The notes under the pieces: generated by a model | Told to the model about the DNA's origin: nothing | Database searches by the model: none | The model's input: the letters and a program-made list of their open reading frames with translations, nothing else | Part shown: positions 3,721 to 62,479 of the stretch, piece after piece | Position numbering within the stretch: the stretch's first letter is position 1 | Layout: the number at the start of each line of letters is the position of its first letter | Position numbers and translations under genes: made by a program | From: Okamejei kenojei | Taxonomy: Eukaryota | DNA length: 64,000 nucleotides | Reading direction: 5' to 3' | NCBI GenBank assembly: GCA_035221665.1 | Contig: CM069147.1 | Location: 25,854,001 to 25,918,000, forward strand

Positions 3721-4499
3721 TAAATGAAAACGTGCAGACTTGCTGAAAGGTGGGCAAATTTTATTTGTAAAAGAGATGAAGAACGGATGCTTCACTACCA
3801 TCGCAAACAAGTGTTTTTTTCTGACCTAAACCATCACTGTAATGTGGTTACTGCTGCATTGTAAGTTATCGCTTAATCCTTACTCGCGTATCGATGCGTG
3901 CAAAGAAGCAGTTTCTCGCCTATCTTCAATATCACGCATTGGGTGATTACAACGTAATGGAAACACAATATGCGGTTTCTAATTGTAGCTGTTACAACAT
4001 AAATCGTATGCTCGATTTTATAGGTCAATAGCATTGGCGCATTTGAAATGTATTCGCTCAGCCCACGGTGAAAATTGTAATTGCAAAATCCGTAATGATG
4101 TACATGAACATTTGAATCTGTTTAATGGGTGCGTTAGGTTTGTCCGAGGGAGTATGAACACTGAAGAAGTTGCTGTTATTATTTGAATACGAGATATAAC
4201 TCAGCAACGCGTTTCTTAAACTTTCCAAATATGCAATGGCGTTTTGTTTTATCAGGTGTAAACCCAGAAACATGCGATAGCAAAAGTGGTCCACAAGAAA
4301 CTGAAGATCCTGGTCCCAACCCGAAACGTCCATCATTTTCCTTCCACCGGTGTTGCCTGAAATGCCGTCCGCCAGAAGTGTGTCTCCCTTTTTTCGTGCA
4401 GCAAAATTGATGTCTGTTTTTGTTTTATATATGTTTAACAAAATATGTGTGTCCGTCCAAGATCACTACTGTCATCCCTATTATCCATTGAGCTTGAAA

Positions 4500-6759: not shown

Positions 6760-6860
6760 GTCCTGATGGTGAGTCATCGACAAGCATCACACCCTTCGCG
6801 CCCAATCAGGAGGTTGGTTTATATTCAACTGACATTTCCTGCTAAGATAAGTCACTTGGG
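6760..6860 (+). promoter_or_regulatory. Candidate proximal promoter of the VJ-C1 receptor
   Basis: AP-1 site TGAGTCA (~6770), CCAATCA (~6802), ETS-like TTCCTG and AGATAA clustered 280-370 bp before the ATG; motif inspection only. Confidence 0.3.
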
Positions 6861-7027
6861 CACAAATCCATTTTCCTCTGCAACTCACCTCCTTCAGTGG
6901 TTTAACTGCAGCAAGTTGGACGCGCAACACGAGAGCACGTCGTATCACAAACAAGACCTAACCTTTAGGAAACTGCGATCTCCAACGAAACAACGTAGGT
7001 TTCTGGATAGACCAGATTATGTTCTAC

Positions 7028-7125
7028 GCCTGAAGAAGGGTCTCGATCCGAAACGTCGCCTATCTCCTTCGCTGCTTAGATGCTGATGCACCCGCTGAGT
7101 TTCTCCAGCCTTTTGTGCACCCTTC
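7028..7125 (+). mobile_element. Penelope-tail mini-element with hammerhead core (7030-7057), inserted directly before the receptor ATG
   Basis: CTGAAGAAGGGTCTCGATCCGAAACGTC...CTGAGTTTCTCCAGC; TSD TGTTCTAC at 7020-7027 and 7126-7133. Confidence 0.88.
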
Positions 7126-7134
7126 TGTTCTACA

Positions 7135-7180
7135 ATGTTAATCTATTTGTACCTTTGCGCGCTGTGGGTTTTTTATGAAG
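7135..7180 (+). CDS. VJ-C1 receptor exon 1: leader peptide MLIYLYLCALWVFYE
   Basis: ATG at 7135, 15 hydrophobic codons +1 nt, donor GAAG|GTAATC; phase matches the V exon acceptor. Confidence 0.85.
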
Positions 7181-10153
7181 GTAATCTTCCTCATTCTTCA
7201 GCGTCGCGCTGTCCTGTAGATCACCCATGTATCTACATACGATTAAACTATTTATTGTGTCTAAATTATATTTCATCGCAATATTTGTTTCTGTTTGGCA
7301 GTGGCTCCATCGACAATATCCCAGATCCCTAAAGCTAGCACGGTGATGATGGGAACAGATATCACCTTCGAATGCGTTACCAGTGAGATTCCGAACAAAG
7401 CAAGTCTGACTGTAAATTGGTGGAAACTTGGTGATGAAGGACTATTACAACCAAGTTCCCATGGCAGAAAACGGGTTATACAGTTGGAAAACGATAGGAG
7501 TTTGCTCAAAATCCTTGATGTCCGTGTCGCCGATTCTGGGATATACTACTGTAGTGTAGTTCAGCAACAAAAGGAGATTGTGAAAGGAACCGGATCCAGG
7601 CTTCGGGTGCATGGTGAGAGGACTGCAGTGCGGTTATGTCAAAGGGGCAGAATTAGTTAATTCCGCCCATCGAATGTACTCCGTTTCGGGGTTCCTGTTG
7701 AGCAACAGCTACTCCATAAAAAGTCAATGGGCCAGGTCAAGCTATCTTTAAATAATGCCAATAATAATGTCAACAGTAGTCTCTCTGTACTACATACAAC
7801 ATTTGAATAAGGAAAATGTTGCTATTTCTACAAGTATATTTGTAACGTCTGTCTGCCGTTGGTTGCTTAGATCATTCAGTTAGTGAACGGTAGATGATTA
7901 GAACGCCTGGATATATATTTGTTGGTATATATATAAGTGTGCGATTCATGTAGCACAAGAGGAATCTGAAGGCCAACGCGTGGAGTTCGGTAGCAATATG
8001 CGTTGTGATAATCTGGCAAATAAAGTATCCCATAAATCTATGGGAAGATTGCTTGTATTCCTCAAGGGCAAAGGTGAAAGGGTAATGGCTCAACGAAGCA
8101 AACCCCTGGGCAGGATACAACAGCATGTAAGCAGTCTTGGCCATCACACCAGTGCCAGAATAAATAGGTCTTAGAGGAAATGATAGGCACATTTGTCGGA
8201 AAGACATCTGGATTCCGAAGCTTATATCGAGGAGACATCGCTGAAACTTGGAATTTAGAAGATAGGAACATCACTTACTGAGAATTGTTTAATGCTACAT
8301 CGAATAGTAATTCGTAGAATAATACTAACTACCAGCGAACAGAAAAGCGGAATGAGTCGCTGTTGAAGTGCTATTCTCTGTGCAGACTTAATCAGGCTAA
8401 TAACCCGGTCGACTTGGTTTGATTTGAACAATGTAACATTAAAATCATCCAAATTATAGGCGAATTGTAGCTTGTTGATTAAAAAAAATGTTGCTTACAA
8501 ATAACCGTTGGATTTGCTGGGGAGCCCGTCAGCATTCATCTGTCCAGTCTAATTGGAAGGACTAGATTCTAAACTGGGCTGAAATGATAATTCAGATAAT
8601 CATTTTATTCTTTCTCGCACCCCACAGCTTCTCCAGAACCTGTCAGCCTTTTCCCCAAAGCGCCGGAAACAAACTCGTCCAATCTCGTCCTTGTGTGCAA
8701 GACAGGAGAGTTTTACCCGGAGTCTCTCACCTTCACTTGGTATAAAAATGACACCAACGTTGAGACTGGTATCAGCGCAAGTAAAATCCTGAACTCAAAC
8801 GGAACTTATGCAGCGTCCAGCAGCTTGGAAACATTGCAGCCGCCTGGGAGTGGCGCTTTTTATACCTGTCTGGTAACCCACCTCACACTTCAGAGTCCAG
8901 CTATGGCTATTTACGTTGATGCCAGTTTTAATCCGGGTAAGATGCTGGCGATGTTTCATGTGCTGACAATAGAGGCCGCAATAAACAGATTCATATTATT
9001 TTCATTCCTATTGCTATGGGCATGTGAATTTTGTAGAATATCCACCAAAGATAGTCGTTCTGCACCTGTTTCCAAAAAGAAGATAAATGCCAATAAAAGC
9101 AATGACAAATATGAATTACGTAAAAAGGTCATCATCAATTCTATGATGCCGCACAGTGTGTTGTTGGTAGAGCTTCTGCCTCCCATTTACAATCTGAAGA
9201 AAGGTCTTGACCCGAAGCGAACCCATTCCTTCTCTCCAGAGATGTCGCCTGCCCCGCTGAGTTACTCCAGCATGTTTGTGCCTCCCAGCTACAGTAGCCC
9301 GGGTTGAGTCGGCATGACCAAATTAATCCACTGTGGAATTTGCGTTTTCCCTATAAATGCACGGGTTTGTTCTTAGAACTCCCGTGCCCTCCGTGTCCCA
9401 AAGATGTGCCCGTTGGACGGTTAATTTCTCTGCAAATGTCTCCTGGTCTATAGGTTTGTATTGTAACCGGAAACAGGGGGAGTTAACGACAACATGGAGA
9501 GAGCAAACTGGGTCTGGTGGGAATGGGTGCATGGTGACGGATCCGGACAAGATGAGCCGTAGGGTCAATTTCTGAACTGATTCACTCTATTAACTAGTTG
9601 GCCTGAAAAAGAGAGAGGCAAATACATTTCAATCAATTTCTTCCTTCAATGAACTGACTACGGATTTTGGTCAGATCTTAAATTTTTTGTTATTTATTGA
9701 GAGATATGGTCAGAAATTTGTTTATATATTTTGTAAATCAAAAACTTCATTACCGTTGTTGACTCAAAGAAATTATAAAGATAATTGCTTGTTCCCATAA
9801 TGAGCTCGAGCTGTATAGTTCCAGCGAAATAAATATGAATAAAGTGAAACAATATCCATACATGTAATATTTTAAATTGCGAAGGATAACAGTCTGCGTC
9901 CATGACTTTGTTGTGCATACGCGGAAAGTGCACAATACACCACAAAAAATAGGCTTATCAAATTTGCTGCATAATTTTGTGGTACAACATAAATGATAAT
10001 TATTCCAAAGATGATTAATGCTGATGATTATTCTCGTAGCCAAAGAAAATACACATCTGTTCCTCTTGGTTTTTGGATGTACATTGAGCGTATGCGTTTG
10101 CCTTGCCATCATAGTTCTCAGGTGGAGAAAATGTCAATTCCGTAAACAGGAAG
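7135..10153 (+). CDS. Non-rearranging VJ-C1 immunoglobulin-superfamily receptor (antigen-receptor/SIRP/NKp30-like type I membrane protein); exons 7135-7180, 7302-7613, 8628-8936, 10040-10153; cytoplasmic exon(s) unresolved
   Basis: Four GT-AG exons, all phase 1, join into an open 260-codon frame: signal peptide, V domain with J-like G-x-G strand, C1 domain, hydrophobic TM followed by a basic stop-transfer segment. Confidence 0.9.
7302..7613 (+). CDS. VJ-C1 receptor exon 2: V-set domain with germline-joined J-like segment
   Basis: Acceptor TTTGGCAG|; ITFEC...VNWWK...LLKILDVRVADSGIYYCSV...KGTGSRLRVH (canonical C, W, D-x-G-x-Y-Y-C and G-x-G-S-x-L-x-V); donor G|GTGAGA. Confidence 0.93.
8628..8936 (+). 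CDS. VJ-C1 receptor exon 3: C1-set Ig domain
   Basis: Acceptor CCCCACAG|; LVLVCKTGEFYPESLTFTWYKN...NSNGTY...FYTCLVTH (C-x4-FYP, W, NGTY, Y-x-C-x-V-x-H); donor G|GTAAGA. Confidence 0.93.
9190..9295 (+). mobile_element. Penelope-tail unit with decayed hammerhead core, in receptor intron 3
   Basis: CTGAAGAAAGGTCTTGACCCGAAGCG...CTGAGTTACTCCAGC. Confidence 0.65.
10040..10153 (+). CDS. VJ-C1 receptor exon 4: transmembrane and membrane-proximal tail
   Basis: Acceptor TTCTCGTAG|; AKENTHLFLLVFGCTLSVCVCLAIIVLRWRKCQFRKQE; donor G|GTAAGG; not listed in the ORF track. Confidence 0.85.
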
Positions 10154-10211
10154 GTAAGGAAGATTCAGTGTAATTTCCTTCGGGTTCATTTAAAGAATAG
10201 AGGGAAATAGC

Positions 10212-10490
10212 GGGCGGCACGGAGGCACAGCTTTAGAGTTGCTGCTGTACAGTGCCAGAGACCCGGGTACGATCTTGACTACGGGTTTTGTCTGTACGGA
10301 GTTTGTACATTCTCCTCGTGACGTGCGTGCATTTACTCCGGGATCTCCGGTTTCCTCCCACACTCCAAAGACGTACAGGTCTGTAGGCTAATCGGCTTAG
10401 TATAATCATAATTTGTCCCTGGTGTGTGTAGGATAGTGTTAGTGTGCAGGAATCTGTTTCTGCACTGTATTTCTAATTTAAATTAAACTA
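10212..10490 (+). mobile_element. HE1-type V-SINE
   Basis: GGGCGGCACGG head, CTCCGGTTTCCTCCCACACTCCAAAGAC core. Confidence 0.88.
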
Positions 10491-10859
10491 AGTTAGTGAA
10501 AAACGAAGGCCAACGTTATATCCGTCATAATGACTCAATTAACCGATTAGTGGATACCCACGTATACAGTATTTAATATTGTTTTGTTGATTACAATTGT
10601 TAAACTAAGTCGGGGTAAATTCAACTTTTACAGATGTCATGTTTCTTTTATTTTAAACCCACGACTCCCAAGGGGTTACGGTAGTAGATATTTCGCAGTA
10701 TATGTTCACAATCGTATTATGGCGATAACGTAGTTTAAGAACGCTCTTCAAATGCCTTCCCTCCATGGATTTTACGTCACAACTGCTTCCGAGGACAGTT
10801 GGCTGCAACTGTTGTCCTCTTTCTACTGAACTCTTGCACATTGGATTGGAAGATTGGAT

Positions 10860-11275
10860 TGGATACATATAAATGACCTGGATATAAATGCAGATTGGGT
10901 TGTTGAGTAGGTTTATTGACGACACCAACACTGAAGGAAATGCTGACAGTGAGAAAAGCAGTCAGATGATAGAGCAGGATATGGGCCAGTTACAAAAATG
11001 GGCGAAGAAATGACAGATGGGGAATAACCAGTGCAAAAATAAAATGTTGTACTTCGGGGGTTGAATGTAAGAGGGAAGGATATAGTTTATGATGTGCAGA
11101 GGTATCTTAGAGTCCAGCTTCATTGCTCACTGAACGTAGCAACACAAGTAGATAGGGTGGTAAATAAGGCGAATAGTATGCTTACCTTCAGTATTAGCGG
11201 CGTTTAATATAAGAGTCAATAGTCATTATGCAGCTACATAGGACTTTGGTGATGCCGTATTTTAGTATCACATGT
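10860..11275 (+). mobile_element. Degenerate CR1 RT fragment
   Basis: YINDLD...FIDDT..QLQKWAKKWQM pattern. Confidence 0.7.
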
Positions 11276-11362
11276 TGATGGGAAATGTTCGTAGTTACGA
11301 GTTCAAATATGGGCCCGTGTTTCGATTTCTGCTATAATTTCATGTCTTCTTCTCAACTTCAG

Positions 11363-11415
11363 GTAGCACTCAACTGCTTGAAAAGCCAAATTATATCTGG
11401 GGAGTGGGCTTTTAA
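11363..11415 (+). CDS. Candidate cytoplasmic/terminal exon of the VJ-C1 receptor (GSTQLLEKPNYIWGVGF*)
   Basis: Good pyrimidine tract TCTTCTTCTCAACTTCAG|, open in phase 1; the 3' part runs into CR1-like sequence; an alternative candidate is 12925-12968. Confidence 0.35.
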
Positions 11416-12301
11416 TGGCGATGTGCGGGCAAGGTTTTTACGCAGAGAGTAGTGGGGGCCTGGAACACATTGGCAAATGTCCTGGCAACATCTTCGTAAA
11501 TATCTCTGCACCCTATCCAACTGCAATAATCATTTTTAAACTAATTAAATACCATATGAAGGAAATGTATGCCCATGCGAAAACATGAACTGCTTCAAAA
11601 TCTATACAATTCTTTAGAAACTCATCAGATGCTTACGAACAAGACCTGATTCTGCGATTCTGTCCGCCCAATACTTGTCACAGTTATTCCAAATCTAATG
11701 TCAACAGGCTAACGCCAAATTGTTTCAACATTACCCTGGTCACGTTTTAACGCCTTTGAATACAACAAAACCAGGACAAGCATTTCCCTTCCAACATTCT
11801 TCAATATAATCTTTCGTAACGATTTTAGCGATCATTTGAACGATTGAATTATGTGAAACAAACACGGAGACAAATGCGGTTTTCTCCAGAACAGCGAGTG
11901 GAATATTCCTTTTGCGAACCATTTGGGCGACTGTACACGGTTGTGAACTAACTACAAAATCCATTGATTTTATAGATCATGAAGGAGGTGATTGAATATA
12001 CGCCACACCATCGTAAATGGCACAGGCTTTATCAAAAGATAAGAACGAAAGGCTGTGAATAATCTGTTGATATCCACTTGAAACAAGGAACAATGAACGA
12101 TGAATTCCAAATAATGTAGCAGGACAAATAAATAATTGGATGAGCTGGAGACTACATTAACCTGAACTAGACGAACTGCCATCTGTTAATAAAAATGTCA
12201 ATGTGGCATTCTGACAACTTCAAATTAAAGCGGATTATTATTTATTGCGCATTGCACACGCGCGTGTGTGTGTAGCTCTGTGTGTGTGTGCTCGCTTGTG
12301 T

Positions 12302-17923: not shown

Positions 17924-18193
17924 TGTTAGCTTGTGTAGGAAGTTGCTGATTGCTTGATGGCATCACACCAGTAATAGATTCCTGTCAATTCACGCCGAAA
18001 GGCATTGCAAATTAAAAGTTCTCGCTTCACAAGACCGCCCGATCCTTATGGGAGCTTACTTGGGCGAGAAATCTAATCATAAAACTTATTAACTTTATTC
18101 GATGTCATTTCTGGGTTTTTTTAAAGAAGATCTTGTGACGAGGTGTGAAAGGAATCTTTTTCATGCTGTGAAACAACATGGATTTCAGAGGAT

Positions 18194-18548
18194 TACACAA
18201 AAAGCTGGAGAAACTCAGCGGGTGCAGCAGCATCTAAGGAGCGAAGGAGATAGGCGACGTTTCGGGTCGAGACCCTTCTTCAGACTGGTCAGGGATCAGG
18301 GAAACGAGAGATATAGACGGTGATGTGGAGAGATAAAGAACAATGAATGAAAGATATGCAAAAAAGTATCGATGATAAAGGGAACAAGCCATTGTAAGCT
18401 GTTTGTGGTGTGAAAATGAGAAGCTGGTGCGACTAGGGTGGGGGGGGGGGGGGGGAGAGATAGAGATAGAGGGAATGCCAGGGCCCGAGGGCTGAGGGAG
18501 AGGTGGGAAGGGGAGGAGACAGCAGGGGTAACAGAATTGAGAAAATTC
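18194..18548 (-). mobile_element. Penelope 3' end fragment with intact hammerhead core (18256-18283)
   Basis: Reverse complement of the ORF end (EFSQFC) and the tail seen at 23180-23400. Confidence 0.85.
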
Positions 18549-19259
18549 TGGATTTCAGAGGAAATGTATTTAACATGGCGGCGAGCACACACAATACGTG
18601 ACATTTCATCGCCACCTACTGGTCATATAGTGTTCGATAGTTGACCGCACAGTAATCATTAACCTTTACGAGTCAATTACTCAATCCCGGCTTAAATCTC
18701 CCCGCAACCCACTAAGAAAACATCCCATTGGCTTCTGCAGTCTATCGGCAGAACTAAAATCCATCATCCTTGGAATCATTTAGGTAAACCTCTTCCCCAC
18801 TTTACACGTTCCCTGTACAGCGGCCAGAAATGGCCGTTATAATTCTGAAATTATAGTGTCTTATAAACGTTTATTCGGGGGAAAGTCCCGTATCTTCCAT
18901 GACTTGTTCGTGTTCCGGACACCGTACATTTTGTTCTCATTTAAAATCGCATCTCCATTGCTGTTGTGTTCGTCCAGTTTTAGATGTACAATCCAAAAAA
19001 ATATTTAATGGAAACTGTCCAGCCACCCAGGTAAACTGGTGGAAAACGTGCGTGTGAACTAACTGAGGTCTGGTCAAAATGATGCTAAACTTTATATTTA
19101 ACCTCCCGTTTGTATCTAACCGCAGTTACTGTTAAACTGTCAAACTCCATTCATCAGCTGTTATAGGAATCGGTTTACTCTTTAATATATATCGAAATAT
19201 TTCATTTGTTTATACTAGAATTGGGCACCCTTTTTTCAAAAAGCTCTTTTCATCTGCTG

Positions 19260-20619: not shown

Positions 20620-23600
20620 ATGCTTCTTTGCTCTTCAACTGTGACCTCCTGGTTCTGGACTCCACCAACATGGGGAACATTTTTCCTGCTTCTAGCATGT
20701 CCAATACAATGTTATGTTTTAATATGATCCCTTCTCATCCTTCTAAATTCCAGTGAACAAAAGCCCAGTCAATTCATTCTTTCAACACATGTCCATCCGC
20801 CATCCCGGGAATTAACCTGGTGAACCAACGCTATACTACCTCAATAGCAAGAATGTCCTTCCTCAAATTAGGAGACCAAAACTGCTCACAATATTCCAGG
20901 TGCCGTGTCACCAGCGCTCTGTACAACTGCAGTAGGACCTCCTTACTCTATCAACTCAAAACCTCTCGCTATGAAGGCCAATCCATTAGCTTTCTTCACT
21001 GCCTGCCTTTCCTGCATGCTTACTTTCAGTGACTTGATATACAAGGACACTTGGGTCTCGTTGCACCTACCCTTTTGCTAATCTGACACCTTTTAATAAT
21101 AAAAATTCCTTCTTGTTCTTGTCACCAAAGTGGATAACCTCACATTTATCCATATTGTACTGCATCTGCCCACTCACCCAACATATCCACGTCACTGTGC
21201 AGCCTCATAGCATCCTCCTCGCTGCCACCCAGTTTTGTCTTCCGCAAACTAATAGATGTTACATTTAATTCCTTCATCTAAATTGTTAAAATAGATTATA
21301 AATAACTGGGGTCCCAGCACTGAGCCTTGTGTCACCCCACTAGTCACTGCCTGTCAATCTGAAAAGGACCCGTTAAGTCCTACTCTTTGCTTACCAGTCA
21401 GCCAACCAGTTCTCTATGCATGTCAATACCCTACCCCTAATACGGCGTGCTCTAATTTTGCACACTAATCTCTTGTGTGGGACCTTGTCAAAGGCTTTTT
21501 GAAAGTCCAGATACACCACATCCACGGGCTCTCCCTTATCCATTCTACTTGTTATGTCCTCAAAAAATCCAGAAAATTAGGCAAGCATGATTTTGCCTTC
21601 ATAAATCCATGCTGACTTTGACCGATCCTGTCACTGCTTTCTAAATGCGCTGCTATTACATCTTTAATAATCAATTCAAGCATCTTCCCCACTACACAGA
21701 CCCATTGTCTCTGCCTGTTCATGCCCCACCGAACACTTTCCACATAACTTGACTCCATCCTATCCCCCTTGGTTAAATCCCTCCCCACCTACGTTCAAGC
21801 CACCTCAGACACTCTCCGTCATCTCCGCGCATTCCATTCTCCAGGCCCCCATCCTCTCATCTTCACCATGGATGTTCAGTCACTCTACTCCTCCATCCCC
21901 CACCAGGATGGTCTCAAAGTCCTCCAATTCTTCCTTGACCAGAGGAGCAACACATACCCGTCCACTGACACCCTCCTCTGCCTAGCAGAGTTGGTCCTTA
22001 CCGTCAATAACTTCTCTTTTGACTCCTCCCATTTCCTCCAAATACAAGGCGTAGCTATGGGCACATGCACGGGCCCCAGCTACGCCTGCCTCTTTGTCGG
22101 GTACGTCGAACAATCCTTGTTCTCGGCATACCAGGGCCCCATCCCCGACCTCTACCTCCGTTACATCGACGACTGCTTTGGTGTCACCTCCTGCACCCAC
22201 ACACAACTGACTGACTTCATCCATTTCACCAACAACTTCCATCCGGCACTCAAATACACCTGGACCATTTCCGACACTTCACCATCTCCATTGCAGGGGA
22301 TACACTCCTGACCGACATCCACTACAAACCCACTGACTCCCACGGCTACCTGGACTACTCTTCCTCCCACCCTGCTTCCTGTTAGGACTCCATCCCCTAT
22401 TCCCAATCCCTCCGTCTACGCCGCATCTGTTCCCAGGATGAGGTGTTCCACACCAGGTCATCACAAATGTCCTCATACTTCAGAGAACGGGGATTCCCCT
22501 CCCCCATAGATGAGGTTCACACCAGGGTCTCCTCCATACCCCGCAACACTGCCCTCTCTCCGCATTCCCCCACTCGCAACAAGGGCAGAGTCCCCCGGTC
22601 CTCACATTTCACCCCACCAGCCGGCACATACAACGCATAGTCCTCCGCCAGTTTCGCCACCTCCAACGTGACCCCACCACTCACCACATCTTCCCATATG
22701 CCCCCGTCTGCCTTTCGCAAAGATCCGCTCCCTCCGCAACTCCCTTGCCAATTCTTCCCTTCCCTCCCGCTCCACCCCTTCCCCGGGCACTTTCCCTTGC
22801 AACCGCAAGAGATGCTACACTTGTCCCTTCACCTCCCCCCTCCACTCCTTTCAGGGACCCAAGCAGTCCTTCCAGGTCCGACAGAGGTTCACCTGCACCT
22901 CCTCCAACCTCATCTACTGCATCCGCTGCTCCAGATGCCAGCTAATCTATATCGGAGAGACCAAGCGGAGGCTTGGCGATCGTTTCGCCGAACACCTCCG
23001 CTTGGTCCGCAATAACCAACCCGACCTCCCGGTGGTTCAGCACTTCAACTCCCCCTCCCATTCCGTATCTGACCTCTCTGTCCTGGGCCTCCTCCACGGC
23101 CAGAGTGAGCAACACCGCAAATTGGAGGAACAGCATCTCATATTCCGCTTGGGGAGTCTGCATCCTCTTGGCTTGAACATTGAATTTTCTCAATTCTGTT
23201 AACCCTTGCTGTCTCCCGTTCCCACCTCTCCCTCAGCCTACGGGCGGCTCCTCCTCCTTTTTCCTTTCTTCTCCTCGCCCCCCCCCCCCCCCCCCCTCCA
23301 CCAGTCTGAAGAAGGGTTTTGGCCCGAAACGTTGCCCATCCCCTTCGCTCCTTAGATGCTGCTGCACCCGCTGAGTTTCTCCAGCTTTTTGTGTACCCTC
23401 GATTTTCTAGCATCTGCAGTTCCTTCTTTAACACTGATGTTAGGCTAACATCTATGATTCTGCTTTCTCTCTCCCTCCTTTCTTAAAAAGCTGGGTTACA
23501 TTTACTACCCTCCAGTCCACAGGAACTGATCCAGAGTCGAGAGAACTTTGGAAAATAATCACCAATGCATCCACGATTTCCAGGGCCACTTCCTTGAGTA

Positions 23601-40000: not shown

Positions 40001-43000
40001 AATGGCGGGAACGCTTGTGGCACATGTGAAAGTGTGCGAGTGGCTGAGCAGAAGTGGGAACGGGTTGTAATGGACAAGGCCAGGAGTGAGGCCCAACTGT
40101 GGACAGACGAGGCCGGGAGTAGGGCCCAGCTGTGGATAAACGAGGCTGGGTGTGAGGCCTAGCTGCGAACAAAGCAAGGGGAGGAGGGAGATCCATCTGT
40201 GGATGCAGCGAGGATGGGGGGTGGGGTCCAGCTGTGTAGACGATATATTGTGTTCAATTCTGGACACATTTTCTGGATGTGAAGATTTATGAGAGCATAC
40301 ATTAAAGATTGCAGAAATGATAACTGGAAGGCGATCCCAGAATGGTAATTAAAATTACGATGAGTCGTCTTCATGGTTGTGAGGAGTTCCCACATTTTGG
40401 CAACTAGTCGCGGCCTCATTATGTCGGTGAGAATTTTTCAACATGGTGAAAAATTAGCGGCGTCCAGAATGAAGTCGCAATGGAGATTAGCGAGAATTCT
40501 CGAGCCGTAGGTCGGTCGCCAGGACGTCTTAAGGTTCTCATAGGTTGGAGCCGGGGCTGATTGGTGAATTTCATTGGCTCATTGGGGGAAAAAGGTAAGC
40601 AGTAGTTTTCAGAACCAAGGAACTGACCGGTAATGTTAAATGTCCGCGAACTTCACAGCCGTGTATCTCTCGCTTCTTAAAAGTTGTCTCTACTCCTCGT
40701 TACTCCTTCTCCCTCATTCTCCCCCCCCCTCCTCTTTTAAAGGACTTACCGTACACTGTGCTTTAGCTCTCTTAATTACAGCGCCAACCTTCCCGTTCAT
40801 CACGGTGCGTGTCTGTATGACCTTGGCTTTGCACCGTGGGAATTTTTTAGACAGCGTTNNNNNNNNNNNNNNNNNNNNNNNNNNNNNNNNNNNNNNNNNN
40901 NNNNNNNNNNNNNNNNNNNNNNNNNNNNNNNNNNNNNNNNNNNNNNNNNNNNNNNNNNNNNNNNNNNNNNNNNNNNNNNNNNNNNNNNGTCGCCGTTCCA
41001 ATTCCCGTTTTTTGAGCCAACTGCTGGCAACTCCCATGCAAATCTCACCCGTGTCCTGAGGGTGCAATAAAGTACAGGCAGCAGTGCACTCGCGTATCTG
41101 CTATCTGTCGCCGGTTCACTCGTGACTCAGAGTTCAGGAATTCCTCAAATCTGCTGTCGATATAATTTACAACTGGCTGCCAACTGCAAGGAAACCAGAA
41201 AGATTACAAATCAATAATAGACACCATCAGCACTTTGGGTGCTTTCTTACACTTGCATGTTTTCGTTTACTTTAGAGATACAGTGTGGAAACAAGCCCAT
41301 CGGCCCATTGTCCGTGGAACCAAAAAACACCCGTACACTAGTTCTATCCTGCACACTAGGGATCGTTTACAGAAGCCAATTAGCTTACAACCCTGTACAT
41401 CGTTGGAATGTGGGAGGAAACTAGAGCACCTGGAGAAAACCCACACGATCACAGGGAAAACATACAAACTCTGCACAAACATCACCTGTAGTTAATGCTG
41501 AGTGATGCTCTACCTAGAGCTTTTCAGTGTACTACATCCAGATCCAGAGGATCTCTGGCGTTGCAAAGCAGCAACTCTATCACTGCGCCACTGTATTTTT
41601 TTCTTTTAAAATCTGACAACTTTCCAAGATGGCAGTTATAATTATAAGATACAAGAGACGGTGTAAGTAAAATCTGAAACTACCAATTACTGTTGTCCAC
41701 CGCATCTCCAAATCCTGGGGTATCGACAATAGTCAGTGTAAGCTGCACTCCTCCTTCTTTAATTTGAACCTTTGCGTGTTCAACCTGGAAACAAACAGAT
41801 AAACTGCATTCAGGCCACTGAATACCATGTCTAAAGCTAACACACATTTACAGTGAAAGTGGCAAGAGCAGGGGTATGAGCAAATTTCAAGAACAAAAAA
41901 GGAAAAGAAAAGGCAGGCAATCATTCAATGGTACTTTGTCACGTGTACCCAAGCACAGTGAAATTCGTTTTTGCATACCGTTCAGTGACAATCCTGCTGG
42001 ACATTAGGCGTAATATAATAAATATAAGAGTGTAACACAGTGGACCATACTGAGTCTGTACACAACAGTTACCACATTTTTTGTGCCATCTTCGTGGAAC
42101 TCCAAGTACTTCGTGGGAGTCAGCATGCAGTTGATGGTTCCAACAAAGCATAAGGATCTACACGAGTAGACAAGTGCCCAAAATATTAACCAGGCATATT
42201 CACTAAAGCTCAAATAAGTCAGGATCTGGTGAGGCTGGACCACAGATAGGCCATTGAAAAGAGCAGGGTGTTCAGAAATCCCAACACACATACACACAAA
42301 ATAAAGCACTCCACAAGCAACAAACACATGAAGAAACAATCACACAAATTATACTATTGGACAATGTGGAGTTGCATCTGTCAACATGAATTCTAATCCT
42401 CATGAGGGTACACAAAAAGCTGGAGAAACTCAGCGGGTGCAGCAGCATCTAAGGAGCGAAGGAGATAGGCGACGTTTCGGGTCGAGACCCTTCTTCAGTC
42501 TGAAGAAGGGTCTCGACCCGAAACGTCGCCTATCTCCTTCGCTCCTTAGATGCTGCTGCACCCGCTGAGTTTCTCCAGCTTTTTGTGTACCCTCGATTCT
42601 CCAGCATCTGCAGTTCCTTCTTTAAAACTCTAATCCTCATGACATCAGTCGATCAGACATTGAAACTGCTTTCTGATTATCACCAATTGCTAGCCTTCAG
42701 CTGATGACACAAGACTTCACATTGATTTGGACTAGGGAAAAGTAGGGAAAACACCAAGGACGTGCAATGTAGTGAAGACAGATCATTCAATATATCATTA
42801 AGAATATCTCAGGAGAACCGTCACTGCTTCAAGATGCACAAATTGTGAAAAGTAAAGCTGTTTCACTAGGTGTGCAGCAAGTGGTGAGAGAATTAGCAAG
42901 GGATGACCAAACTTCACCCATCCACCATCTCCAGATGTATGTGCCCATGACAGTATCAAGAATGACCACTGCACAGCCATTGTGGAGACAAACTCCCATC

Positions 43001-52628: not shown

Positions 52629-53860
52629 TGTACGGGCATATAGTGATGGCCCTGTTAATATCGAACCCTCGCGATTAGCTGGCGCGGGTCACATGAGCGC
52701 GGGAGCTTTTTCGCGGGTTTTTCTGTTAACCACTCATTCCAGCATCACGCGAATAGAATAAGCATCGTTTATATTTGGCTGTCAAACTCGACTCGGGTGA
52801 CAACTTTATTCTCGTTTTAAAATAAAGAAATTTGTATACCCTACCATCTCGACTTGCCAAACTGGTGACCCCGCTAGTCCGATCGGAATTCAGACTCTCG
52901 ACATGCAAGCCGCCGCCATCCCCGATGCCCTGCAAAACGCTGTGGGCCTCAAACTGCCCGTTTCCTGGGCCGAACAGCCTCAGGTGTGGTTTGCCCACAT
53001 AGAGGCCCAGTTCCACCTTCGGAATATCGTGGTCGACGACACCCGCTATTTTTACGTCGCTGGGGCACTCAACCAAGAGAAGGCTATGCGGTGGCTGCCG
53101 TACCTACAAGACCCACCGGCGATCGGCAAGTACGAGGGCCTCAATGCCCTACGGAGCAGTAGGGCTCAACCACCGAGAAGTATCTTCGGGCTCAACCGCC
53201 GAGATCGCTCCGCCCGCCTGCTCCACATGGACGGCCTAGGTGATTGGAAACCATCCGCCTTGATCGCGTTGATGGACGGCCATCGACCCTGCCTGCTTTT
53301 CGAGTAGGCGTATCTCAAACAAATGCCTCAAACGACATCAGCTTGCTGCTCGCCCGGTCTGACTTCACAGACCCTATGCAGCTCGCAGAGTGGGCCGACG
53401 AATTGTGGCTCGCGAAACAGCAGGACGTCGGGTCCATCAACCGGGTGTCCGAGCCCGCAAGCCAGCAGCCCCGCAGAGATGCCCAGCCCTCCGCTGCCAT
53501 CACCGGGGTAAGCGGCAGTGGTGTTTCTACCACCTCCGCTGGGGCGCAGAGACCCGCCGATGCCGCCCCCCACTGCACGTTTACGGGAAACACCTCGGCC
53601 GATCGTTAGTAGGGCCTATCGCGATCGGCCAAAACAACCGCCTTTACGTGCGAGACCAGCATTCTGGACTTCGTTTCCTGGTCGACTCCGGGGCCATCGT
53701 CAGCATCCTCCCCCCGACTGGGCTGGACAACCGTGCTGGTAAGCGAGGCCCTGTCCTGACTGCGGTCAACCTCAGAAACCATCCGCACCTCCAGCACGTG
53801 GACCCTATCCCTAACCTTCGACTCCCAACCATATGAATGGACCTTTATCGTCGCGGACGT
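52629..53860 (+). mobile_element. Ty3/Gypsy LTR retrotransposon (CsRn1/Kabuki-like), 5' part only: LTR, tRNA-Trp PBS, gag, protease
   Basis: ~230-bp LTR with AATAAA (52821), PBS TGGTGACCCCG at 52863-52873, gag AVGLKLP..W..WFAHIEAQF, CHCC-type motif WCFYHLRWG..RRCRPP, protease FLVDSGA; stops and frameshifts. Confidence 0.88.
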
Positions 53861-58600: not shown

Positions 58601-59164
58601 CAAGCTGGAGACGTTGGACGTGAGGAGCAATGATCGGTAGGAGGGTGAACTGGGGTGATGCCTCCAGTCCCTTCAAGGTCTGCTGCAGGAGGCGCCCCAG
58701 GACACAAAGATGGCTGGGCGAGGCAAGTAGAGAAGAGGAGACGTCAGTTCACGAGAACTGTTCCAGTGCATCGAACACGCTACCTGACTGGACTTTGAAT
58801 AATGGTGCTAAAAATGGTGGTGCCAGCATATGTTGTATACGCAAAGAGAATTTCACTGTGCAGTGGCATACATGACAAATAAAGCACCATTGAACTATCG
58901 AAAGGAGGTGGTACATATTTTGTTCTCCATGCTTTACAGGAAACCACCTTGTGAGCAGTGAATAGCGTTGCTGTTGTGGCCTCGACGAGGTCAGGAAAAG
59001 GCCAGACGCAAGATAGGTTTAAACAGTAGTCCTTTAATCCCTACAGCTAGAGCACACCACACCCACTGAGAGCACACACCCAGGGATGGTCTGGAAACCC
59101 TGTGGCAGACCAATGCCCCTGTCACTCAATTGGCAAGGGGGATGATCCAAGGCATGGCCTACCC

Positions 59165-62049
59165 CCCAGGGACACGGGATGCAAGTGCGCGCCCAATGTG
59201 CAACCTCCTTCCATAGCCCATGCCACATGAAACGGGAGGCTACCAGGGCCGTTGTCGCCTGGATGGAGGGATGCACGAGCCCATAGAGCACCTCAAATAC
59301 CCTGCGCCGCAAGGCAATGGGGACGATGGGTTGCGGAACTCCATTGGGAACATCGCACAGCAGCGTTTCGTCTCCAGGACCACAGACAACGTCCGGCAAC
59401 TGCAGGCCCGAAACTGCCGTACGATAGGCGGCCATCTCCTCGTCGACCCGCTGAGTGGCTGCCAGGGCGGAATAATTAATCCCCTCAGCGACTTGGAGAA
59501 CCGCATGGACTGTAGGTCTCGATAAGGCATCGGCCACCCTATTGAATTTGCCCTCCACGAAACGGATGGAGGTGGTGTATACGGACACATACGCCAAATG
59601 CCTCTGCTGCTAGGCAGACCACGGGTCTGAAACCTTGGCGAACGCGAAGGTTAGCGGTTTGTGGTCCGTATATGCAGTAAACGGCCTCCCCTCCAGGAAG
59701 TAGCAGAAATGGCGTACGGCGAGATGCAGGGCCAGGAACTCGTGGTCGAAAGCGCTGTAACGGCGCTGAGCACCACTGAGATGCCTGCTGAAGAAGGCGA
59801 GTGGCCGCCAGCATCCGTCAACGAGCTGCTCCAACACTGCCCCAACCGCTACCTCTGAAGCGTCCACTGTCAGGGCGGTCGAGGCGTACTCTCGTGGGTG
59901 GACGAGCATCGTGGCCTCAGCCAGTGCCTCCTTTGCCCTCTCGAATGCCGCTGTTGCTTCCACGGACCTCCCTGCGATGACCAGCCATCAGGTGGAAAAT
60001 CGGACGCATGACTGTGGCCGCTGCTGGCAGGAAACGGTGATAAAAGGTGACCATCCCCACAAATACCTGTAGGCCCTTAACTGTGGTCGGACGGGGGAAC
60101 TTGCGAACAGCATCCACCCTGGCGGGCAGAGGCAACACCCCCTGTGGAGTTACGCGTTGGCCGAGGAAGTCAATAGCCGTCACCCCGAAACGGCATTTGG
60201 ACGAGTTGATGGACAACCCGAAGTCGCTGAGGCGCTGACACAGCTGACGGAGGTGGATGCAGTGCTCCTGCCGCAAGCGACTGGCCACGAGTATGTCATC
60301 CACGTAGACGAAGACGAAGTCCAGGCCGCGGCACACGCAGTCCATAATCCGCTGAAAGGCCTGCGCAGCGTTCTTCAACCCAAACGGCATCCGTACCAAT
60401 TCGAATAGATCAAATGGCGTTATAATAGCCGTCTTCGGGATATCGTCGGGGCGGACCGGAATTTGATTGTACCCTCGCATGAGGTCCACCTTGGAAAATA
60501 CCGATGCTCCGGCCAGATGGGCGTTGAAGTCCTGGATGTGCGGGACCGGGTACCTGTCGACGACGGTCTCATCATTCAGGCGACGGTAATCCCCACACGG
60601 GCGCCAGCCACCGTCCGCCTTGGGGACCATGTGGAGCGGTGACGCCCATGGGCTATCAGAGGGACGCACAATTGCCATTGCCTCCATCAGGCGGAACTCC
60701 TCCCGAGCCAAACAAAGCTTGTCTGGCGTGAGACGACTCGCTCGGGCGTGAACAGGCGGGCCGGTAGTAGGGACATGGTGCTCCACCCCATGCTTGGGGG
60801 TGGAGGAGCGGAAGTGGGGTTCAAGGATGTCAGGGAAATCCGCCAGGATGCGCGCGAAAGTCGTATCCACAGACGACAGGGGTCCATCAGGGTGTGATAC
60901 GGGATCAACAATGCGGAGGAAGACCGGCTCCAGTGCGACGGAGTGCATCAGGCGCTGCCGCTTGACATCCACGAGCAGTGAATGGACTCGAAGGAAGTCG
61001 GTGCCCAGCAGCAGCTGGGAAACGTCAGCAATGACGAACTCCCACGAAAAGGAGCTGCGGCCAAAGTTGAGGGAGATGGTGTGAAACACGTAGGTGCGAA
61101 TAGCACTCCCATTCGCCGCGGTGAGGAGGGGCCCGTGTTTGCCCGCACGGATGTCAGCGATGGAGGGAGGCAGGACACTCCCGCAACCTTGTCCACGAGG
61201 AATCGACCTCCAGTGCGGCGATCCCAGGCGAAGACGCGATGAATTTTGCCGGCCGCCGAAGGAATCACTGACGACCGGCCCCTTCGTTTCCCTGGAACAG
61301 GGTGGGCGACATTGGCTGGCTGCAGCTCCCCAGCGACGGTGGTTATAGCACCAACCCGCTCTGCTGGTTTGAACGCCAGCGACCTCTGCTGGCATTGGGT
61401 GGAACTGCAGGACGGCCCTGCTGAAAAGACATGCCTGGACTTGAATGCCCAATGGCGGCCGGATTTTGCCACGAGAGCCGTCTGGGAATAGTGGAGACGC
61501 ATTCGATAGCGACCCCGACCTGCTCTGACCCTCCAACTGCCACGGGAAGGACGGTCAGCATTTCCAGGTTTCGCTGGCGAGACATCCACAGCTCGTCGGC
61601 CTGCTCGCCCAGCGCCTGCATGTTAGTAAAGGGTTCCCTGGCGAGCTGCAGGTGGATGTCGGGCGGAAGCTGCTGCAGGTAGGCGAATTTAAATAGCAAA
61701 CAGGGTTCATAGTCCCCCATTAGGATGAGCATGTCCTCCAGGAGGGCAGACGGCCGGCGGTCACCCAGGCCATCCATTCGGAGAATCCGAGCTGCCCGCT
61801 CCAAGTCACCAAGGCCAAACCTCCTGGAGGACATGAATTCCTTAAGGCCCCTATATTTGTTAGCAACCAGGGGGGCTCTGAGGAAAGGCTTAACTCGCCT
61901 CGCAGTTGCTTGGTCAGTATTGTTGCAGTATTTTGTTTCGCCTGCTGTAATACCTCGCACAGAAATTGTGCCTCCGCCTGCTGGAACCAGATGTCAGGCT
62001 CTTCGGTCCACACAGTAGGGAGCTTAAGCGCAACGGCATTATTATCCAT
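59165..62049 (-). mobile_element. Ty3/Gypsy retrotransposon internal region (CsRn1/Kabuki-like): gag-PR-RT-RNase H-integrase N-terminus, frameshifted, no LTRs
   Basis: MDNNAVALKLP..WFQQAEAQF; [13 protein letters not shown]; [36 protein letters not shown]; DASEVAVGAVL; HPSIQAT..CIPC. Confidence 0.95.
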
Positions 62050-62479
62050 CACGACACGTGATGGATAATATCCATCAACATAATGCAACATGAAGTAATT
62101 GTGAATATAAAGGCAACGCATCTAGCATTGACCTGCCATTTTGTCACAAAGACATATAAGACCTGGTCAACATACAAATATTTGCGTGCTGAAGCCTAAA
62201 TAGTCCCAAAGACCGTTTTGGACTCATTTGGATTATCTCCCAGTATCAAACTTCCCTGCCTTAATCCATAGGCTATCATACAGCAACAATCCATTTACAG
62301 ATGTAATCCATATCTCAGCTGCTGGTGCCTTTTCACTGAGGCTCTTCTCTGCCATTAGTAGCAGCGGGGAATAAATAAATGGCAGACACATTTACTGTTT
62401 ATTTTTGCTTCATGCTTCATAGTGAAAGACACCAGCAACATGACAAATATTCAATAGAGTCAGGGACGAAAGTTAGTGG

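Follow-up and report, generated by a model that had tools for sequence, protein, structure and literature searches.

An immunoglobulin-superfamily gene lies downstream of a Penelope-like insertion

The window, by which we mean the whole 64,000-nucleotide stretch of DNA analysed here, carries a gene of the immunoglobulin superfamily at 7135-11995 on the forward strand. Its five coding exons have canonical splice sites and together make up 266 codons free of any internal stop, the last exon included. Between its putative promoter and its start codon sits a short Penelope-like insertion with a hammerhead ribozyme core. The coding exons are listed below.

7135..7180, + strand, leader portion of coding exon 1; agrees with protein P0001 at 14 of 15 residues, GT donor
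7302..7613, + strand, V-set exon; Pfam V-set E 2.5e-10, 88% to P0001, AG/GT ends
8628..8936, + strand, C1-set exon; Pfam C1-set E 4.7e-15, AG/GT ends
10040..10153, + strand, transmembrane/cytoplasmic exon; located by tblastn of P0001, AG/GT ends
11976..11995, + strand, likely last coding exon; assigned by eye, guided by an AG acceptor and the resemblance to the orthologues' ends

The gene product is 87% identical to the little-skate and thorny-skate proteins and 64% identical to the sawfish protein, figures that are approximate given that the last exon was misplaced by two bases in the comparison. The window is thus skate DNA, and all three orthologues begin at the same methionine, which marks ATG 7135 as the orthologous start and agrees with an earlier note on this DNA that had taken this codon as the start of the gene. 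Shark orthologues were also found, and the non-skate matches of P0001 range from 47 to 65%. The database names of the orthologues are automatic and mutually inconsistent, and we infer the label "immune receptor" from the domain layout. Sequence searches of the PDB returned generic immunoglobulin matches that did not name the gene, and it goes unmentioned in the accessible portions of PMC12227049 and PMC10751288. The V exon ends in a J-like GTGS motif, and this arrangement of a single V, a single C1 and a transmembrane segment is conserved in skates, sawfish and sharks; the gene may be an unnamed, non-rearranging VJ-C1 gene.

The insertion is lineage-specific and flanked by a target-site duplication

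The insertion site consists of three parts, of which the first and last are copies of the same host sequence.

7017..7027, + strand, 5' copy of the target duplication; alignment of the contigs from organisms B, C, D and F breaks off after 7027
7028..7123, + strand, Penelope-like pseudo-LTR stub without the optional tail; missing in five relatives
7123..7133, + strand, 3' copy of the target duplication, retaining the ancestral bases before the start codon; alignment of the organism B, C and E contigs picks up again at 7123

The 8-mer TGTTCTAC occupies 7020-7027 and 7126-7133, with the second copy followed by A7134 and ATG 7135, precisely where these copies had been placed before. An exact 8-mer at both insert junctions has a probability of about 1.5e-4. 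While the 8-mer is real, the description of an 8-bp duplication is better replaced by a longer one: an 11 bp duplication extends over 7017-7027 and 7123-7133 with a single mismatch at 7019, and the target-site duplication is thus probably 10-11 bp rather than 8, with a later C>A change in the 5' copy. The stub itself spans 7028-7122/3 (about 95 nt), T7123 fitting element and target alike. The previously described distance of one base from the start codon holds for the duplicated host copy alone, which ends one base before the ATG, whereas the element proper ends 11-12 nt 5' of it. By keeping the native bases in front of the ATG, the duplication would help explain why the insertion was tolerated.

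The empty site was sought in other organisms with contigs from 6 of 24 listed runs that aligned to the window. A contig of organism B skips 106 nt cleanly, passing from 7016 directly to 7123, and so represents the empty site; in organisms C and E the contigs omit this stretch too, with 23 letters of other sequence in its place. The contigs of organisms B, C, D and F whose alignment ends at 7027 continue beyond it in other sequence. Altogether the insert was missing in five of five other organisms compared, so that the orthologue comparison for an empty allele, which had been proposed earlier, found an empty site in each relative. The flanks of organism B differ from the window by about 4%, and with the site empty in that organism the insertion is younger than the split between the two. 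The insert was present in the one further sample of the same species (X5, organism A), in which a contig running from 6618 into the element differs at three positions, all outside the core and none of them 7019. A chance resemblance is countered by the orthologous empty sites, by the junction 8-mer probability and by the hammerhead core pattern, which occurs five times in the window and in none of 100 shuffles. These observations confirm a true lineage-specific insertion with target duplication.

Organism A is represented by two samples only, the window and X5, and contigs drop rare variants, which leaves some room for the insert being a segregating, mildly harmful allele that is not fixed in the species. 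We regard this as very improbable. Sample X5 differs from the window at several flanking bases and yet has the insert together with its private changes, its contig enters the element at flank-like depth without a skip joint, and six substitutions relative to the youngest family copies suggest that the insert is not very recent.

The insert belongs to an abundant Penelope family

A profile built from seven copies detected 18 family copies in the 64 kb, six of them with an intact hammerhead core. Two family members bear directly on the insert.

9193..9284, + strand, older family copy in the intron after the C1 exon, core broken; found with the family profile
21748..23435, + strand, decayed, 5'-truncated parent-type element with RT, Cys-rich linker, GIY-YIG, end piece and tail; recognized by Pfam and family alignment

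The closest copies are 94-95% identical to the insert, which carries six private substitutions in 96 nt relative to the young copy at 42498-42593. Over 94 nt it also shares 88% identity with 23306-23399, a segment that follows the GIY-YIG frame of the parent-type remnant at a distance of about 100 nt, and this match to the 3' end of an RT and GIY-YIG element upholds the Penelope origin that had been proposed for it. The remnant's RVT_1 (E 1.2e-5) and GIY-YIG (E 3.1e-4) matches lie in separate broken frames, both just below the Pfam cut-offs, and a CX2-5CxxC linker motif lies between RT and EN in the frame 22672-23202. The RT piece has 214 relatives at E <= 1e-30, some of which also contain PF01541. 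To see whether ATG 7080 might be the start codon of the element's own protein, the stub reading frames and the motif were compared with 120 listed among these 214; neither occurred in any of them, most being N-terminally incomplete.

Young copies of the family vary in form. The optional tail is present in two of five (42500+ and 23306+) and absent from the insert, and 14-bp target duplications flank two other young insertions. An inverted pair of copies lies at 42405-42593, within a head-to-head stub arrangement (42392-42642) that has a tail on one arm only and a flanking 14-bp duplication, and whose predicted fold-back would bury both hammerhead cores. The young copy at 18179-18562 (- strand) is preceded by a pyrimidine-rich stretch of about 265 nt and has a 14-bp duplication. 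In longer copies (23240-23305 and 18284-18400) a pyrimidine tract and CAG directly precede the T before the core, a configuration that resembles the end of an intron described at helix I in the Penelope element of D. virilis (PMC4209133, in part); the parent element might gain a better stem I through splicing. This pyrimidine-rich part is lacking in the insert stub, and loose contig ends indicate that family copies commonly start at bases equivalent to 7028-7030. Summed contig depth on the element was about 1e5 times that of the flanks in four of four runs, a measure of abundance and not of copy number.

Several further repeats were noted. A divergent hammerhead stub at 4301-4399 (+ strand) has an intact core with a different stem II and probably represents a second Penelope family. 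Contigs of X5, X6 and X12 contain very short tandem repeats of the hammerhead part, returning from 7062-7063 to 7030; in a variant with the spacer AGGT the downstream unit would gain a longer stem I (about 6 bp), and such tandem loci elsewhere may be better ribozyme candidates than the insert. LTR-retrotransposon-like remnants lie at 59034-62121 (- strand) and 52801-53836 (+ strand), with gag/protease/RT/integrase-like frames, among them the frame 59917-61551 with an RVT_1 match at E 1e-27.

The hammerhead core is complete and predicted to fold poorly

The insert contains a single ribozyme motif.

7030..7057, + strand, minimal type-I hammerhead core; identified from the sequence and the description in PMC4209133

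The core comprises CUGAAGA at 7030-7036, an extra A7037 and GAAAC-GUC at 7050-7057, with the predicted cleavage site after C7057; the conserved CUGANGA, GAAA and NUH elements fall at 7030-7036, 7050-7053 and 7055-7057. Stem II is formed by G7038-U7041 and A7046-C7049, four base pairs closed by G7038-C7049 as the G10.1-C11.1 pair, and is weakened by one G-C having become G-U. The palindromic ACGU at 7053-7056 has a zero loop, corresponds to positions 15.2-16.2 and forms no stable helix III. Every coordinate given in the earlier note for this sense-strand core, its stem II and its predicted cut holds, as does the minimal type-I anatomy, with the min-HHR core, extra base, G10.1-C11.1 pair and palindrome all present. 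Stem I reads pair, pair, mismatch, pair, pair; the best energy uses 2 bp, the number also found in family-context copies, and although four of its first five positions are paired as opposed to two of five in two family-context copies, the extra pairs bring no added stability. Stem I is indeed partial, as had been said, but its attribution to host bases needs amending, as G7028 and C7029 belong to the insert. A distal stem I with host bases 6995-7000 was dropped, these being non-contiguous with C3 and paired with 7023-7028.

We folded seven stretches with a nearest-neighbour model, which ignores tertiary contacts and proteins. The G10.1-C11.1 pair had a predicted probability of at most 0.001 in all seven, and the ribozyme-ready state costs 5.0-9.2 kcal/mol across them. 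The double-hammerhead core reaches -5.5 kcal/mol for two strands, as against -7.6 kcal/mol per strand for the misfold of the shortest stretch, and in the fold of 6990-7137 the core and stem II bases pair with the insert 3' end and the target copy. Two family-context copies fold equally poorly in the same model, so that folding does not single the insert out as dead. Nor does its intact core signal selection, since six random changes in 96 nt miss the 13 core bases with p = 0.41. Rfam yielded no match at the gathering score in the whole window, and at E values up to 10 the interval 6900-7250 gave two chance matches, neither of them a hammerhead; the Rfam models miss such minimal hammerheads.

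Given that the palindrome lacks a loop 3, helix III could form only between two molecules, and the family copy at 9193-9284, the only one on the same strand of the gene, has a broken core and thus offers no partner in cis. In the available text of PMC4209133, single minimal hammerheads of metazoan Penelope elements showed no detectable cleavage and dimers cleaved at low levels. In Anolis, the Penelope-like element's hammerhead required the element's own protein for activity, and none of the RNA-seq reads terminated at its cut site (PMC11167929, in part). Self-cleavage by the insert is therefore unlikely in view of its zero-loop stem III, two contiguous stem I pairs, weak stem II, predicted misfold and want of an intact transcript partner, and the hammerhead is probably idle.

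Spelled out in full, the mechanism suggested by the earlier note would have the hammerhead cut after 7057, either dimerized with a second transcript or helped by the element's protein. The cap and a short upstream open reading frame (uORF) would be removed, and the 3' product would decay or undergo cap-free translation. No core base is missing for such a reaction and stem I is slightly better than in the family-context copies; moreover, viral 5' UTR hammerheads of type I promote cap-independent initiation by cleaving (PMC13725137, in part), and it is for the Anolis element that protein-assisted cleavage was demonstrated (PMC11167929, in part). However, an effect on cap retention is weakened by the same features that make cleavage unlikely, namely a stem III that cannot form in a lone copy, the short stem I and a closing pair that is almost never formed in the model. 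The 3' product would still carry the start codons at 7080 and 7086 described below, and ribozyme-only constructs gave less than 1% translation in plants, according to the available part of PMC13725137. We therefore consider a role for cleavage in this gene's expression improbable. Trans partners for the hammerhead could nonetheless be plentiful in a genome this rich in the motif, and this counts against our treating it as silent.

New start codons lie upstream of the gene in the insertion lineage

The region between the putative promoter and ATG 7135 contains the following features.

6770..6825, + strand, promoter-like motifs from a motif scan: AP-1-like at 6770, CCAAT at 6802, TATA-like at 6820
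7019..7033, + strand, short uORF of four codons plus a stop (7031-7033) inside the hammerhead core
7080..7178, + strand, out-of-frame (-1) ORF of 32 codons, from ATGs 7080 and 7086

A CCAAT box had previously been reported near 6802 and is present at that position. We take the three motifs to be AP-1-like, CCAAT and TATA-like elements of putative promoter function, in which case the latter two would point to a transcription start near 6850. The 252 nt from 6767 to 7018 are devoid of ATG, against 3.5 expected (p ~0.03, post hoc). With an insertion point only 1-12 nt from the ATG, the ancestral transcription start almost certainly lay upstream of it. Three putative splice-like motifs were also noted: an acceptor-like TTTCTCCAG inside the insert at 7100-7108, a pyrimidine-rich CAG ending at 7108; a branch-point-like CTGAT at 7083-7087, which owes its existence to the private change at 7086; and, further upstream at 6769-6774, a donor-like GTGAGT.

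The insert might be absent from the mRNA or only partly included in it, if the transcription start falls within the insert or beyond its 3' end (an internal promoter of the element being a possible driver), if the insert is spliced out via 7100-7108, or if the gene is silent in this species; the insertion would then be neutral or act on the promoter. An internal promoter able to drive downstream genes is known from the pseudo-LTR of D. virilis Penelope (PMC2377424, in part), family copies commonly begin at the very bases where this stub begins, and the acceptor-like CAG lies within it. Against this, the position of the insertion so close to the ATG and the CCAAT and TATA-like motifs both argue for a start further upstream, as does the ATG-free leader that would follow; the stub lacks the pyrimidine-rich upstream part of longer copies; and the gene's reading frame is intact. 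On balance we consider absence from the mRNA unlikely, albeit less so than an effect of cleavage.

Within 6767-7134 the only ATGs are those at 7019, 7080 and 7086. The first has an A at -3 and opens the four-codon uORF that, in agreement with the earlier claim, ends inside the ribozyme core. The second is common to young family copies, while the third arose by a private C>A change; the ORF that they share extends 44 nt past the start of the coding sequence. At -3 and +4 each of these two ATGs has a pyrimidine, a context that we take, by the usual start-context rule, to be weak, and they would thus capture few ribosomes. From the stop of the first uORF, the gaps to ATGs 7080, 7086 and 7135 are 46, 52 and 101 nt. 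Two of seven private changes created an ATG (p ~0.025, post hoc), slightly above the neutral-drift prediction.

Closer inspection of the organism B joint suggests that ATG 7019 is itself new. Bases 408-418 of the B record align to 7123-7133 and, at the cost of exactly one additional mismatch, to 7017-7027; no more than two letters are compatible with both sides of the joint, and the two 11-mers differ only at their third base; from the extra mismatch and this single difference, organism B has a C where the window has A7019. The alignments of organisms C and E, which resume at 7123, would point to the same base. As judged from the empty site of organism B, the closest relative, ATG 7019 is a derived change in the insertion lineage. 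The earlier expectation that ATG 7019, were the insert not there, would start a longer out-of-frame ORF over the leader is not borne out, the empty site having a C at that position.

We also weighed whether the three start codons form a regulatory switch. In human ATF4 a short uORF1 precedes a uORF2 in the -1 frame that overlaps the main ORF (PMC11058473, in part), a layout matched here, and ribosomes that have translated the four-codon uORF could resume scanning, bypass 7080 and 7086 before acquiring a new initiator tRNA and start at 7135, the more so under eIF2alpha phosphorylation, as in virus infection. Such a switch, or a compensation of the same form, would accord with the derived state of ATG 7019, its A at -3 and the share of private changes that made ATGs. 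It is nevertheless doubtful to a high degree: the two later ATGs would seize few ribosomes, the spacings are short, the layout is young and known from one species, and any family copy inserted in sense brings ATG 7080 along, out of frame two times in three. It would be a distinctly long shot that, in one skate lineage, a Penelope stub and two point changes built an ATF4-like leader on a conserved antigen-receptor-like gene, either stress-inducible or serving to rescue translation from the insert's ATG, in which the latent hammerhead between the uORFs could remove the first of them.

A silent passenger with modest cost to translation is the favoured reading

The reading that we consider probable is that of a lineage-specific Penelope end piece whose hammerhead is likely a silent passenger and which, if it lies in the 5' UTR, would cause a modest, leaky loss of translation through its new ATGs. 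A stub of 95 nt stands between target copies and is absent in five relatives; by known Penelope biology, it would have arrived through target-primed reverse transcription by the RT/GIY-YIG protein, using a short microhomology where its 3' end joins the target. Thanks to the duplication, the ATG is still preceded by its 12 native nt, and the reading frame shows no disruption. The changes that made ATGs 7019 and 7086 would both postdate the insertion. A lone copy is predicted to be incapable of closing stem III and to fold otherwise, so that little of the RNA would be cut. Scanning ribosomes would reach 7019, then 7080 and 7086, and then 7135, some being lost and others arriving at 7135 by leaky scanning or re-initiation. 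An effect on translation, as had been surmised, thus remains plausible, but its route would be ATGs 7080 and 7086, which the earlier note had overlooked; any effect on the neighbouring gene is more likely to act through the three new upstream start codons than through the ribozyme.

As a ribozyme the insert is ordinary, one among a vast number of Penelope stubs. At 18 copies per 64 kb, about 1.4% of genes would carry a sense-oriented copy no more than 100 nt from their start codon, absent removal. Since close relatives keep the empty site, the insert is a dated natural experiment, and the system can address whether a single transposon step builds a working uORF switch and whether metazoan minimal hammerheads ever cut host mRNA in cells, a question left open in the accessible parts of PMC4209133 and PMC11167929. 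If the ATF4-like reading were true, a regulatory architecture would have arisen de novo on an elasmobranch immunoglobulin-superfamily gene.

Comparison with known systems

The human ATF4 leader resembles the present one in its short uORF followed by a -1 frame ORF overlapping the main ORF, seen here in genomic sequence alone. The human uORFs are well conserved and tested, and uORF2 has 60 codons (PMC11058473, in part), whereas the insert's ORF has 32 codons and weak starts and is confined to one lineage. Conservation of the uORFs is absent, given that ATGs 7080 and 7086 are missing with the insert in five of five relatives and that position 7019 is a C in organism B.

The discontinuous Clec2 hammerhead likewise places a ribozyme beside the coding region of a surface protein, where it could lower expression (PMC6765202, in part). 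Cleavage was shown for the Clec2 ribozyme, which lies in the 3' UTRs of several mammalian genes and removes the poly(A) signal (PMC6765202, in part); the insert, in contrast, is on the 5' side, lineage-specific, minimal and a predicted ribozyme only. A domesticated ribozyme of the Clec2 type was rejected because the insert is absent in five of five relatives and has no helix III in cis, its only same-strand copy being broken.

Non-LTR retrozymes share with the insert a short, non-coding, PLE-derived unit with a type I hammerhead (bioRxiv 10.64898/2026.07.22.740005, in part). Active ones need at least two tandem units with complete hammerheads, according to the available text of that preprint, while the insert is a single unit between target duplications, and an active retrozyme was ruled out on this ground. 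Retrozyme copies are rare in exons, at 0.24-0.32% in Xenopus, with most of the exonic ones situated in 3' UTRs (Li, Clavereau and Pollet, bioRxiv 10.64898/2026.07.22.740005, in part), which makes a copy beside a start codon uncommon. Searches of an open-access library turned up no published description of a Penelope hammerhead within the 5' UTR of a host gene.

The remnant at 21748-23435 has the RT, CX2-5CxxC linker and C-terminal GIY-YIG domain of EN+ Penelope-like elements of the Neptune/Nematis type, and the family shares with these its inverted, 5'-truncated copies and optional 30-40 bp tail (PMC8557442, in part). The insert differs in being a non-coding 95-nt stub, and the likeness, which is one of domain layout, would fit either clade.

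The closest counterpart is the min-HHR of metazoan Penelope-like elements as set out by Cervera and De la Pena (2014) in the accessible part of PMC4209133. Both have a complete core, an extra base at 9/10.1, the G10.1-C11.1 pair and a palindromic 15.2-16.2 without loop 3, and both occur mostly as solitary, scattered copies located in the end repeats of an RT and GIY-YIG element. Helix I has 2 contiguous pairs in the insert, compared with 4-5 in S. mansoni and 2 in D. virilis; the 4 pairs of the insert's helix II, one of them G-U, stand against 7-8 in S. mansoni (PMC4209133, in part). The insert also adjoins a host start codon, for which the available text of PMC4209133 describes no parallel. 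By the sequence features tested, helix I length aside, the insert is a Penelope end repeat bearing a min-HHR.
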